Assembly (NCBI GenBank): GCA_036679605.1
Contig: JAZDCZ010000384.1
Location: 1 to 12,871 of the forward strand
Origin: Gemmatimonadota bacterium
GTDB taxonomy: Bacteria > Gemmatimonadota > Gemmatimonadetes > Gemmatimonadales > GWC2-71-9
Length of the DNA: 12,871 bases
Direction of reading: 5' to 3'
Shown: positions 550-8,674 of the stretch, piece by piece
How the letters are laid out: every line of letters begins with the position of its first letter
Position numbering within the stretch: the stretch's first letter is position 1
The notes under the pieces: generated by a model
The model's database searches: none
What the model was told of the DNA's origin: nothing
The model's input: the letters and a program-made list of their open reading frames with translations, nothing else
Position numbers and translations under genes: made by a program

Positions 550-2424
550 CTACTCGCGAGCGCGCGAGCGTTTCCGGGCGCGAGCGTGCGCTTTCAGTTC
601 CACCTTGCGCAGGCGGACCGCGACCGGCGTTACCTCCAGGCATTCGTTCTGCCGGATCATCTCGAGCGACTGCTCCAGCGAGAGTGTGGTAGGTGGAGTC
701 ATTTTCTCGGTCGCCTCGGCTGTCGACGAGCGCATGTTCGTCAGCTTCTTCTCCCGCGACGGGTTAACGTCCATGTCCTGCGAGCGTGGACTTTCGCCGA
801 TGATCATCCCTTCGTACACATCAACGCCGGGGCCGACGAACAGTGTGCCCCGTTCCTTTAAGCTCAGCAGCGCGTAAGCGGTAGTCACGCCCCGGCGGTC
901 CGCCACCAGGCTGCCGGTCGACCGCGAACGCACCTCGCCGTGCCATGGCTCGTAGCCGTGGAACACGTGGTGCAGCAGCCCGGTTCCCCGCGTCTCGGTC
1001 TGAAACTGGGTGTGGAAGCCAATGAGCCCGCGCGAAGGAATGATGTAGTCGAGCCGGACGCGACCGCCGGTTCCATGGTCGATAGTCTTCTGGCGGTAAC
1101 CCTTGCGCATCGCCATGAGCCGTGTGGCCACACTGACGTACTCCCGTGGCACGTCCAGCGAGAGCATTTCAACCGGCTCGTGTAGCTGACCGTCTATCTC
1201 GCGCGTGACCACTTCAGGGCGGCCGACGGTGAGTTCGAACCCTTCGCGGCGCATCGTCTCCACCAGGACCGCCAGCTGCAGCTCGCCCCGACCCTGCACG
1301 GTCCACGCATCCGGCCGATTCAAGGGTAGGACGCGAATCGAGACGTTCCCTATCTGCTCGGCGTCCAGTCGGTTCTTCATAATCCTCGCGGTCAGCAATG
1401 TGCCCTCGCGTCCGGCCAGTGGCGATGTGTTGATGCCTATGGTGACCGAGAGGCTTGGCTCGTCAACGCGGATTACCGGCAGCGGTTTAGGGTTGATCGG
1501 ATCGGCTAGCGTCTCGCCGATAGTGATGTCGGGGAAGCCGGCTACGGCAATTATTTCGCCCGGGCCGGCTTCCTCAGCGCTTATCCGTTCCAGCACCTCG
1601 GTCACGTAGAGCTCAGCGACCTTCGCAAGTTCGATGCTGCCATCCTGGCGGCACCAGGCGACTGTCTGGCCGGGTCGGATCTTACCCTGCACCACGCGGC
1701 ACAGCGCCAGCCGACCGACATAGGGCGATGAGTCGAAGTTAGTGACGAGCGCTTGTAGCCCGTGGTCTGGATCATAGGCAGGCGCCGGAACACGCGAAAC
1801 CAATACGTCGAACAGCGGGTGCAGGTCCTCGCCGGTAACGTTCGGGTCTAGTGACGCCTGGCCGGTTCGCGCATTGCAATAGACGATGGGGAAGTCGAAC
1901 TGTTCTTCGTTGGCGTCGAGCTCAAGGAACAGCTCGTAAACTTCGTCGACCACTTGGGCGACGCGACTATCGGCGCGGTCAACCTTGTTTACCACCAGGA
2001 TAATCGGCAGATGGGCCTCGAGTGCCTTCCGTAGCACGAACCGAGTTTGCGGTAACGGTCCCTCGGTGGCGTCTACCAATAGTAGCGCGCCATCGACCAT
2101 CGTAAGGCCCCGCTCGACCTCGCCGCCAAAATCGGCGTGGCCCGGCGTGTCAACTATGTTGATCTTCACGTCGCCGTACCGCACGCTGGCGCTCTTGGCG
2201 AGAATTGTGATCCCCTTCTCGCGCTCCAGGTCGGCGGAGTCGAGCACGCGGTCAGGGAGTTCCAGCCGCGCGTCTAGCTGGCCAGATTGTCGGAGCATGG
2301 CGTCCACCAAGGTGGTCTTACCATGGTCCACGTGGGCAATGATCGCCACGTTCCGAAGGTCATTCCGAAAGGCATTGGCGCGTCCTGACGCCGGCTTCGT
2401 GCCGGATCGCATACTGTTGGACAT
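550..2424 (-). CDS. typA: Translational GTPase TypA/BipA
   Basis: G1 AHVDHGKTT, EREKGITI, G3 DTPGHADFGGEVER, G4 NKVD, GRGELQL, and C-terminal KKLTNMRSS. Start placed at ATG 2424 (MSNSMR), downstream of GGAGA; the ORF track's first 40 aa are probably not translated. Confidence 0.96.
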   Translation of the reverse strand: MSNSMRSGTKPASGRANAFRNDLRNVAIIAHVDHGKTTLVDAMLRQSGQLDARLELPDRVLDSADLEREKGITILAKSASVRYGDVKINIVDTPGHADFGGEVERGLTMVDGALLLVDATEGPLPQTRFVLRKALEAHLPIILVVNKVDRADSRVAQVVDEVYELFLELDANEEQFDFPIVYCNARTGQASLDPNVTGEDLHPLFDVLVSRVPAPAYDPDHGLQALVTNFDSSPYVGRLALCRVVQGKIRPGQTVAWCRQDGSIELAKVAELYVTEVLERISAEEAGPGEIIAVAGFPDITIGETLADPINPKPLPVIRVDEPSLSVTIGINTSPLAGREGTLLTARIMKNRLDAEQIGNVSIRVLPLNRPDAWTVQGRGELQLAVLVETMRREGFELTVGRPEVVTREIDGQLHEPVEMLSLDVPREYVSVATRLMAMRKGYRQKTIDHGTGGRVRLDYIIPSRGLIGFHTQFQTETRGTGLLHHVFHGYEPWHGEVRSRSTGSLVADRRGVTTAYALLSLKERGTLFVGPGVDVYEGMIIGESPRSQDMDVNPSREKKLTNMRSSTAEATEKMTPPTTLSLEQSLEMIRQNECLEVTPVAVRLRKVELKAHARARKRSRARE

Positions 2425-2584
2425 ATCCGTACATTTTCTCCCTGCGAACCTAATCATTAAATGTCGTGTGTAATCAGCGTAACATCGGCCGGGCGTGGAG
2501 TGCCAATATTGCAGCCGCTGTGTTTCCACTCGTCGTGGAGCCACTCACTCGTACTCGTGGTGCAGACCAGCGGGGTGCCGAAAA

Positions 2585-6569: not shown

Positions 6570-6842
6570 TCAGCTCGCCACCCGCCGGATCCGGGAGTCT
6601 GGCAAATCTTCTTGAAGTGATTCTGACCCCGACACCATTCCCAACTGTAGTGCGCGAGCGACCGCGTGCACCCGGTTCGTGACGCCCAGCTTGCGCGTCA
6701 CCGTCCGCAGATGCGCGCGAACGGTGCTTTCCGAGACGAAGAGGCTGCGGGCGATCTCCTTATTGGTCAATCCCTGCGCCAGCGTCTGAAGGACCTGCGC
6801 CTCACGTGCCGTCAAGGGATCCGGTAGTAATTTCCGGGGCAA
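6570..6842 (-). CDS. Solo LuxR-type HTH regulator, possibly 5'-truncated by the IS
   Basis: PLTAREAQVLQTLAQGLTNKEIARSLFVSESTVRAHL...KLGVTNR is a canonical LuxR C-terminal domain. The annotated TTG start lies inside the IS left TIR. Confidence 0.85.
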   Translation of the reverse strand: MPRKLLPDPLTAREAQVLQTLAQGLTNKEIARSLFVSESTVRAHLRTVTRKLGVTNRVHAVARALQLGMVSGSESLQEDLPDSRIRRVAS

Positions 6843-6849
6843 TTATCCC

Positions 6850-6878
6850 TTGACAGTAGGTAGTTAACCTGCTAGGCT
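6850..6878 (+). promoter_or_regulatory. Putative sigma70 promoter P1, partly inside the left TIR
   Basis: TTGACA (6850-6855), 17 bp spacer, TAGGCT (6873-6878). Confidence 0.5.
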
Positions 6879-6879
6879 C

Positions 6880-6908
6880 TTGTTGTGGGTAGACGTTGTA
6901 GGTATAAT
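6880..6908 (+). promoter_or_regulatory. Putative sigma70 promoter P2 for the IS leader/sORF
   Basis: TTGTTG (6880-6885), 17 bp spacer, TATAAT (6903-6908). Predicted +1 is near 6915, where the inverted repeat begins. Confidence 0.55.
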
Positions 6909-6914
6909 GGGGTG

Positions 6915-7115
6915 TGACATGGGACGACAGAATCGCGACGAAAGGAGACCGAGCCAATGGCGAAATGTCGTCCCACGCGCACACGTAGGACTGGCCGGAA
7001 AGCCATCCGCGTTAGGGCTCACGCCCGACGTAAGCCGAAGCCAATCGGCAAAGCCTGCTAGGAATACCATCCTAGCACATCCATCCAGCTTCTAGCCGCC
7101 TGTCGTCCCATGTCA
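6915..7115 (+). repeat. Perfect 16-bp long-range inverted repeat enclosing the sORF
   Basis: tgacatgggacgacag (6915-6930) pairs with ctgtcgtcccatgtca (7100-7115). An extra internal partner tgtcgtccca lies at 6966-6975. Confidence 0.85.
6957..7061 (+). CDS. Small basic protein/leader peptide, 34 aa (MAKCRPTRTRRTGRKAIRVRAHARRKPKPIGKAC)
   Basis: RBS aaaggag at 6941-6947, ATG 6957, TAG 7059-7061. 14 of 34 residues are K/R and none is acidic. An 8-bp hairpin (7056-7077) overlaps the stop. Absent from the supplied ORF track. Confidence 0.6.
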   Translation: MAKCRPTRTRRTGRKAIRVRAHARRKPKPIGKAC

Positions 7116-7133
7116 ACTAAGAGAGGTAGCGCC

Positions 7134-8018
7134 ATGAACAACAATAGAATGCGGAAGTACACCGTCCAGGATTTCAGCCGCGACTTTCCCGACGATGCTG
7201 CTTGCCTGGAATGGCTTCGGGGTCACCTGTACCCTGATGGCATCTTCTGTAAGGTCTGTCAGAAGATCACGAAGCATCATCGGGTCAAGTCCAGGCCATC
7301 CTATAGTTGCGACTGGTGCGGGCACCACGTCCACCCGACCGCTGGAACTGTCTTCGAGAAATCCACCACACCGCTGCGGCTGTGGTTCCATGCGGTGTTT
7401 CTCATTGCCTCTACCCGCTGTGGGGTCTCGGCCAAGCAGATTGAGCGGGAAACGGGGGTGACCTATAAGACTGCTTGGCGGATGTTCAACAAGATCAGGG
7501 AACTCCTGGACGAGCCCATTGATTCGCTATCTGGCGAAGTTGAAATCGATGAAACCTACATTGGCGGGAAGCGCAGGGACGGTAAGACCGGCAGGCCCGG
7601 TATTGGCTCGAACAAGACACCTGTGGTTGGCATGGTGGAACGAGCAGGCAGGGTTGTCGCAGTAAAGACTGCGAACGTCTCCCGAACCACTATCATGCCC
7701 GTGATTACGAGTCATGTTCTACCCCGAACCAATGTGTATACCGATGAATACCGGAGCTATGACAGCCTAAAGTATGAGGGTTATGCGCACCGCCGAATAC
7801 ACCACGCCAGCAAGGTCTATGTCGCAGGTACAGTCCACACCAACACCATAGAGGGCTTCTGGTCGCTAGTGAAGCGAGGAATCAACGGAGTCTATCACGC
7901 CGTGTCGCAGAAGTATCTACAGTCCTACCTTAACGAGTACGCCTTCAGGTACAACCACAGGAACGACGAAATGCCCATGTTCAAGACGATGCTTGCTCGC
8001 GTTTCACGGGGCGACTGA
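7134..8018 (+). CDS. IS1595-family (ISXO2-like) DDE transposase
   Basis: N-terminal Zn ribbon (CKVC...CDWC), HTH region, catalytic motifs EIDETYIGG, YTDEYRSY, HTNTIEGFW, and YLNEYAFRYN. Start placed at ATG 7134 after gagagg; ATG 7110 is an alternative. Confidence 0.95.
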   Translation: MNNNRMRKYTVQDFSRDFPDDAACLEWLRGHLYPDGIFCKVCQKITKHHRVKSRPSYSCDWCGHHVHPTAGTVFEKSTTPLRLWFHAVFLIASTRCGVSAKQIERETGVTYKTAWRMFNKIRELLDEPIDSLSGEVEIDETYIGGKRRDGKTGRPGIGSNKTPVVGMVERAGRVVAVKTANVSRTTIMPVITSHVLPRTNVYTDEYRSYDSLKYEGYAHRRIHHASKVYVAGTVHTNTIEGFWSLVKRGINGVYHAVSQKYLQSYLNEYAFRYNHRNDEMPMFKTMLARVSRGD

Positions 8019-8157
8019 CTCGTTTCAGGGCTCCCTCAAAGTCAGCCCGCGTGAACTCGACACCACCCGGCTCTGTCACGATGACTGCCGTCCACTCGAC
8101 CGATTCAACCGCATCACCCTTAATCGTCGGTATTATCCGCTGAACCTCGTTAGCCAC
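7981..8157 (-). CDS. Small hypothetical passenger protein (58 aa) overlapping the transposase 3' end
   Basis: GTG start at 8157 preceded by ggaggagg and overlapping the upstream stop (translational coupling). C-terminus FTRADFEGALKRVSRPVKREQASS. Confidence 0.55.
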   Translation of the reverse strand: MANEVQRIIPTIKGDAVESVEWTAVIVTEPGGVEFTRADFEGALKRVSRPVKREQASS

Positions 8158-8557
8158 CTTCCTCCTCCTTTCGCGCTGCTGTAATTGGAATACGAGCCTT
8201 CGGGTCATCATTCACTAACACGACGAAGACATAGTCTCCCTCAGCTTCAAACTTCAAGTTATGGAGCCTCAGTATTTGCGGTATTTCCACGGGGCGTCCG
8301 CCTTCCGCCCGTGGAATCTTCATCTGAGTCTTTAGCGAGAGCTTTTCATCCCCATCGGCATTCAGCAACTTGATTTCAACGGCCTTCTCGGTATCGTACT
8401 CGGCTGGCTCAGCTACCAGCTTCATCACAACGTACAACTGTGCATGAGTCGCGGGGAAAGTGGAGGCCCAAATGCGGTCGAAGATACCCATGATGTTGAG
8501 CTTCCCACCGTCAGCGACGTTGGCGTAGTCTGCTAGGATAGCAAGCGGAATCTCCAT
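8150..8557 (-). CDS. Passenger gene, beta-rich hypothetical protein (DUF6941-like)
   Basis: MEIPLAILADYANVADGGKLNIMGIFD...FP...LKFEAEGDY.F resembles DUF6941 proteins (recognised from memory, not searched). ATG 8557 is preferred because TTGACA (8596-8591) and GACAAT (8572-8567) look like its promoter. Confidence 0.7.
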   Translation of the reverse strand: MEIPLAILADYANVADGGKLNIMGIFDRIWASTFPATHAQLYVVMKLVAEPAEYDTEKAVEIKLLNADGDEKLSLKTQMKIPRAEGGRPVEIPQILRLHNLKFEAEGDYVFVVLVNDDPKARIPITAARKEEEGG

Positions 8558-8674
8558 AGGGCTTCCATTGTCTGTAGTCTCCCTAAGCCCTGTCAACGCG
8601 AACGCCTGTCTTACCTTCTATCAGGGGATAATTGCCTCGGCACTTAGTGTTCGATCCGAGGAGCCCTCTCCTAC

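Follow-up and report, generated by a model that had tools for sequence, protein, structure and literature searches.

A candidate RNA-peptide cargo cassette with pairing mRNA ends in an IS1595-family element

An IS1595-family element lies within the 12,871-nt contig analyzed here (JAZDCZ010000384.1, binned as a Gemmatimonadota bacterium; hereafter, the window), and its transposase gene is preceded by a small open reading frame (sORF) enclosed by a long-range inverted repeat. The reading that we favor, with a probability of about 0.5, is that this region is a cargo cassette of ∼200 nt carried by one IS1595 sub-lineage, namely, a mini-gene for a basic peptide of 29 to 34 aa, the ends of whose mRNA pair with each other. 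Support for this reading comes from two copies, that of the window and a homologue at a second locus (L167), and from the one comparison between them. Judged by sequence, the cassette was found at two different positions relative to the transposase.

Table 1. Features of the IS1595-family element and of its cassette in the window
Feature	Positions	Strand	Remark
Left terminal inverted repeat (TIR), contains family promoter P1 −35 TTGACA (6850-6855)	6838..6862	+	Pairs with 8612-8636
P1 extended −10, TGn-TAGGCT, 17 nt after −35	6870..6878	+	At the site of the homologues' −10 boxes
Cassette, apparently inserted in a short ancestral transposase 5' UTR	6885..7115, left edge approximate	+	Spacing compared with homologues
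Candidate second promoter P2, −10 box TATAAT, +1 near 6915	6903..6908	+	Sequence; weak −35 TTGTTG
5' arm of closing stem	6915..6930	+	Perfect complement of 7100-7115
sORF Shine-Dalgarno (SD) sequence GAAAGGAG, 9 nt before ATG	6940..6947	+	Identical, with the same spacing, in L167
sORF, 34 aa, 14 K/R, no D/E, pI 12	6957..7061	+	Peptide and codon pattern shared with L167
Alternative partner of 5' arm, sORF codons 4 to 7	6966..6975	+	Beyond shuffles; register not kept in L167
Hairpin spanning sORF stop codon, GCTAG-N10-CTAGC, no U tract	7056..7077	+	Also in L167
3' arm of closing stem	7100..7115	+	Perfect complement of 6915-6930; pairing kept in L167
Transposase SD GAGAGG, outside stem	7121..7126	+	RBS-to-ATG pattern as in L001 and L177
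IS1595 family transposase, 294 aa	7134..8018	+	PF12762, E = 1e-45; NF033547, 215.7 bits (cutoff, 75)
Convergent passenger ORF, 58 aa, overlaps transposase 3' end	7981..8157	-	Similar ORF in L167
DUF6941 passenger gene, promoter-like site 8596-8567	8150..8557	-	PF22091, E = 5e-29
Right TIR	8612..8636	-	Pairs with left TIR

The host element and its leader

The element belongs, as an ordinary member, to an IS1595 lineage that carries cargo. Its transposase and TIRs are those of the family, and an 8-bp target duplication is absent, with 7 of 8 flank positions differing; an exact 8-bp duplication was found in 39 of 78 complete relatives, and the L167 element also has none. A LuxR-type HTH fragment (6570 to 6837, minus strand) is cut at the left TIR, and nothing continues it beyond the right TIR, which, together with the missing duplication, suggests an adjacent deletion or a later rearrangement at the element. 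The contig also carries a TypA gene (550 to 2544, minus strand) whose best named matches are from Dehalococcoidia/Chloroflexi, and the assembly has a second, different TypA; thus, the contig probably entered the bin as a contaminant. No differences in the region were seen in the contigs from one run, which may be the source sample.

IS1595-family elements with passenger genes share with the window element the same type of transposase, TIRs of about 25 bp, and passenger genes inside the ends; Siguier and colleagues reportedly described such elements as "transporter IS." The cassette departs from the usual cargo: instead of an ordinary protein gene, it is a structured RNA that contains a mini-gene. 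The small convergent ORF of the window and its counterpart in L167 (1929 to 2069, minus strand) are basic. This ORF has no Pfam match, and a regular expression for its T/S-R/K-x-x-F-x-x-x-L motif matched at 53 of 234 loci (a raw count, uncorrected for background).

Related transposases were compared at 239 loci, 115 of which have the TIR of the window element upstream of the transposase. A −35 element falls inside the TIR in 102 of these 115 loci and is joined by a −10 box at a spacing of 16 to 18 nt in 88, and the distance from the TIR to the homologous start is 130 nt or less in 77. In most relatives this TIR promoter runs directly into the transposase ribosome binding site (RBS). The left TIR of the window contains the family promoter as well (P1), which the original prediction had missed, and we infer P1 to be the ancestral transposase promoter. 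Were the cassette removed, the −10 box would lie about 24 nt from the ATG, as in homologues. The RBS pattern before the ATG at 7134 also matches that of the homologues. The window has thus kept P1, and ∼230 nt with its own −10 box appears to have been inserted into an untranslated region (UTR) of ∼25 nt.

Longer TIR-to-start spacers hold unrelated passenger genes (13 loci), and small passenger genes of various kinds occur in the family both before and after the transposase. The feature had originally been described as an IS1595 leader; a long-range repeat of at least 12 bp in the 400 nt upstream was found in 1 of 203 relatives, and the homologue lies downstream of its transposase. Going by these sequences, the cassette is not the normal leader of the IS1595 family.

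Other small features were seen among the loci. Just after the transposase, L026 (3532 to 3606) and L029 (3526 to 3600; both plus strand, approximate coordinates) have an sORF that encodes a hydrophobic 24-aa peptide and comes with a strong SD and a U-tailed hairpin; from their sequences these sORFs look like type I toxin-like cargo, and they occupy the slot that the cassette has in L167. Loci L039-L079, mostly from Solirubrobacterales, have no match to the family TIR and carry TGTCAA-N-TTGACA ... TGTCAAGTA before an apparently leaderless transposase start. Phage sORFs of 11 to 17 aa (L276, L287, L318, and L345) are K/G- or R/G-rich and have a strong SD, and no cassette-like closing stem was seen at them. 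The sORFs of L347 and L356 encode hydrophobic peptides of 23 aa, which we take to be Fst-like, and are followed by repeats after the stop.

The paired ends, the peptide, and the L167 homologue

The two arms of the closing stem are exact reverse complements over 16 bp, while the longest long-range inverted repeat in 1,000 dinucleotide shuffles of the leader was 12 bp. Ten nucleotides of the 5' arm (6920 to 6929) are, in addition, the exact complement of a segment within the first codons of the sORF, a local pairing reached in 0 of 5,000 shuffles (a pairing of 9 nt was reached in 13 of 5,000). Positions 6915 to 7140 have a predicted fold of −89.9 kcal/mol (z = −5.6). Both pairings had been pointed out in the original prediction and withstood these comparisons; the other features on which it was built, namely, the TATAAT box, GAGAGG, the two ATGs (7110 and 7134), and the sORF, are all present. 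A putative long-range SD/anti-SD helix inside the closing stem would lie no more than 1 kcal/mol from the best predicted fold of the window and no more than 3 kcal/mol from that of L167. The cassette ends in the window read TG...CA. A retron msr-msd was considered for the bracketing repeat and put aside, since the scan of the window's proteins turned up no reverse transcriptase.

The proposed transcription start near 6915 fared less well. The TATAAT box of P2 is there, its −35 element is weak, and a consensus promoter scan did not list it; an equivalent in register was not found in L167, and scans found no promoter before the L167 cassette. Neither copy has a terminator. The sequence GTAGGTA occurs in the left TIR (6856 to 6862), again before TATAAT (6898 to 6904), and, in many relatives, ahead of the transposase start; it is a possible operator for autoregulation, and P2 may derive from a TIR-like piece.

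The homologue (L167, 2064 to 2253) was matched by a covariance model built from one sequence (25.3 bits; rough E value of 1e-4), a structure-aware search that found what plain sequence searches had missed. Its own fold has a z score of −3.7. The L167 transposase is 72% identical to that of the window, the closest among relatives with nucleotide sequence, and the two share a clade with three further proteins (a quick tree with 57 rows gave support of 99). Transposases P0002 to P0005 show 72 to 79% identity, and P0003 to P0005 belong to this clade. Some 80 nt separate the transposase stop from the cassette, which is closely followed by an unrelated 108-aa cargo gene; this gene resembles clusters, one of which is 12% GIY-YIG. 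Upstream of the same transposase is a ribbon-helix-helix-like repressor gene with its own promoter (842 to 1009, plus strand).

Seven of the 16 pairs of the closing stem are invariant between the window and L167, seven are changed on both sides, one is changed on one side, and one is a mismatch, in a two-row alignment fitted to the model that shows kept pairing rather than a covariation statistic; aligning on sequence only opens a gap of 3 nt within the 5' arm. Slid-alignment controls gave at most one two-sided changed pair over the whole structure. The stop-codon hairpin has two two-sided changes among its eight pairs. The inner hairpins of the window are matched in L167 only if the codon alignment is broken, and their conservation is not supported. 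Likewise, L167 does not keep the 10-bp alternative in register: its local alternative lies over the SD-to-AUG spacer, has 8 bp including two G-U pairs (P of about 0.63), and is no better than chance in its 5-bp Watson-Crick run.

The enclosed peptide is also shared. Over 28 positions the window peptide and the 29-aa L167 peptide have 12 identities (E = 3e-4 for the pair), and both fit the motif MAKC ... RK-x-(I/V)-x-V-x-x-H-x-R-x-x-PK. Identity by codon position is 14, 19, and 11 of 27, the second positions being best kept, a substitution pattern that is, for this pair of sequences, coding-like. Conservation is spread along the length of the peptide and is not confined to a few sensing codons. 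Neither peptide has a hydrophobic stretch (GRAVY of −1.2 [−1.23] for the window and −1.4 for L167). Rich in K/R and with a conserved Cys and His, the peptide most likely binds nucleic acid.

Database searches placed the peptide in no described family. Pfam, PHROG, and NCBIfam gave no match; phmmer against 1.84 billion representative proteins gave 0 matches at an E value of 0.001, and neither peptide is present as an exact sequence in the protein collection. Searches of phages and plasmids by tblastn and of the PDB returned chance matches only, and a peptide profile run on 94 genomes gave one match, lying inside a long ORF. In the ESM Atlas, three unnamed clusters (34, 29, and 34 aa) came up at 0.90, 0.85, and 0.79 with a low recognition value, which serves as a lead only. 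An AlphaFold model was uninformative (pLDDT of 66, pTM of 0.28).

Might the RNA matter and the ORF be incidental? A structured noncoding RNA, or a MITE-like element of 201 bp with 16-bp terminal repeats, would account for the strong fold, the TG...CA ends, and the insertion in the UTR. We consider this very unlikely, given that the SD, its spacing, the start codon, and the reading frame have been kept, with synonymous change, and that the inner hairpins can be matched only if the codon alignment is broken. The arms diverge in sequence while their pairing is kept, unlike terminal repeats that are bound by protein, and a MITE is further contradicted by the lack of a target duplication around the arms and by the single copy of the cassette in the assembly.

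Further copies were sought by running a covariance model (R1) over 231 loci related to the IS, namely, 79 from genomes, 80 from metagenomes, 63 of the 80 viral ones, and 9 others, with 17 loci of one gut-phage group left out. L167 was the one full-length match, and the rest were short hairpin matches with E values of 0.012 or worse. A second model (R2) gave nothing convincing on 200 of the 231 loci plus 100 pattern loci and 0 of 50 on IS-hosting genomes, a set that held no positive control. A DNA pattern with both arms had 0 matches in metagenomes; four viral DNA patterns gave no homologue, and a fifth gave none among the matches listed. A duplex-energy scan of 143 sORFs near transposases could not separate the real cassettes from GC-rich noise. 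The cassette was found in 0 of 60 and 0 of 400 relatives of the assembly, counts that carry little weight because the contig is probably foreign to the bin. In Rfam 15 neither copy had a match at the gathering score, with chance matches only (E values of 6 to 8). The cassette, conserved in two copies, thus matches no Rfam, Pfam, PHROG, or NCBIfam entry and is uncatalogued. Literature searches at the title and abstract level brought up no description of such a cassette; subscription papers lay mostly outside this search, and the supplements of RNA-motif surveys could hold one.

Folding path and the downstream gene

Predicted folds of the growing window RNA are dominated by the local helix until the 3' arm is made. 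The long stem is calculated to be more stable than the open state by 8.1 kcal/mol in the window and 8.5 kcal/mol in L167. Opening the −20 to +13 footprint of the sORF costs 21.2 kcal/mol in the nascent RNA versus 12.4 in the full RNA (window) and 16.5 versus 13.7 kcal/mol (L167), whereas for the SD-to-AUG segment alone the nascent form of the window is the more open one (2.0 versus 4.8 kcal/mol). The direction of the modeled nascent effect depends, then, on the measure used.

The closing stem ends 5 nt before the transposase SD. Predicted opening of the downstream SD-to-AUG segment costs 2.0 kcal/mol with the stem closed and 6.6 with the alternative forced in the window, and 1.9 versus 8.1 kcal/mol in L167. 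When the arms were shuffled, the downstream SD in the open state was masked as strongly in 139 of 300 cases for the window and in 30 of 300 for L167, so that there is no specific anti-SD for the transposase. A dedicated transposase switch, the cis-regulatory link from sORF to transposase as first proposed, is therefore not supported: the homologue lies downstream of its transposase, the stem leaves the SD more open, and the 10-bp alternative has lost its register in L167. The alternative ATG at 7110 does lie within the 3' arm, as had been noted, but it has no SD, and homologous starts match 7134; it was rejected as the transposase start.

A more general version is a portable cis-acting leader, in which translation of the sORF would melt the local helix, the 5' arm would capture the 3' arm, and the SD of the next gene would be freed, the long stem being the ON state. 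We regard this as possible but doubtful. It keeps some plausibility because both copies sit directly before an SD, within about 5 to 10 nt of the 3' arm and with no terminator between; the lower predicted cost of downstream opening with the stem closed holds for both, and the alternative helix of the window, beyond chance, lies in the ORF. However, the calculated instability of the open state means that such a switch could only be kinetic, the masking is matched by shuffled arms at the rates given above, both arms lie outside the ORF, and the peptide is conserved along its length rather than at a few sensing codons. In trpL, ermCL, and other leader-peptide attenuators, a short ORF is combined with mutually exclusive helices before a gene; the cassette differs from them in having no terminator, no run of sensing codons, and, in the window, no significant anti-SD for the downstream gene.

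RNA structure before a transposase is also described for IS200, where tnpA 5' UTR structure and the antisense RNA art200 block the transposase RBS (PMC4513863). As far as that account goes, the cassette differs in leaving the RBS free (SD-to-AUG opening of 2.0 kcal/mol in the stable state) and, unlike an IS200-type leader, in being absent upstream in nearly all relatives examined, its only homologue being downstream.

A closer likeness is to the hok/Sok and aapA/IsoA mRNAs, described as having an sORF of ∼30 codons, a 5'-3' long-distance stem, and a local alternative helix in the nascent RNA (PMC9841398, PMC6733600). To the extent of these descriptions, the cassette shares the ∼30-codon sORF, the 5'-3' stem, and, in the window, a predicted nascent local helix for the 5' element, and it differs in its basic hydrophilic peptide, in having no antisense RNA indicated by consensus scans and no terminator, and in a stem that does not include the SD itself. 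The stem pairing of type I toxin mRNAs was found in both sequences (seven two-sided changes in 16 pairs), and the nascent metastable helix is strong in the window and, in L167, in a different register and at chance level. The suggestion of an IS-borne mini-gene with toxin-mRNA-like 5'-3' pairing is upheld by a homologue that keeps both the stem, through compensatory changes, and the peptide.

A type I-like toxin-antitoxin or addiction module, with a nonmembrane toxin and an antisense or trans-encoded antitoxin, is nevertheless an unlikely explanation. It would fit the order of 5' arm, local metastable helix, and 5'-3' stem, which is that of hok and aapA in the accounts cited (PMC9841398, PMC6733600); a segment freed in the full window RNA can pair over the SD region, like hok's ucb; and the toxin-like mini-genes of L026 and L029 sit in the same downstream slot. 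Against this, the peptide is basic, having 14 K/R among 34 residues, and is not a small hydrophobic membrane toxin like most type I members. Consensus scans of either element found no antisense promoter or terminator, a minus-strand TTGACA (7116 to 7111) has no proper −10 box and is not kept in L167, and the mRNA has no closing terminator.

A working model and its implications

In the cargo-cassette reading that we favor, the 16-bp stem would enclose the SD, the ORF, and the stop-codon hairpin of an RNA for which P2 serves as promoter, with P1 contributing by read-through. While this RNA is being made, the 5' arm would pair locally over the translation start region, and peptide synthesis would be delayed; once the 3' arm appears, the long stem would form and would either protect the 5' end or mark the unit for processing by a double-strand nuclease. 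The long stem would in this way set the amount of peptide made, and a nucleic acid binder that is harmful in excess would fit such tight control. Any effect on the transposase would follow from the landing site of the window copy.

More tentatively, the cassette could be a portable RNA-peptide module in which a hok-like folding path controls a basic, nucleic-acid-binding micro-protein, and which a transposon lineage would move before different genes; by way of its own translation or of its peptide, it would gate the downstream gene or addict the host to the element.

The analysis defines a small RNA-peptide unit that was missed by the gene callers used for the protein collection and that Rfam, Pfam, PHROGs, and NCBIfam lack. 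With a length of 230 nt and two natural variants, it is directly testable with reporters. If the folding path controls the basic peptide, mRNA control in the style of hok and aapA would extend beyond membrane toxins; if the cassette gates the next gene, it would be a plug-in regulator for transposon cargo.
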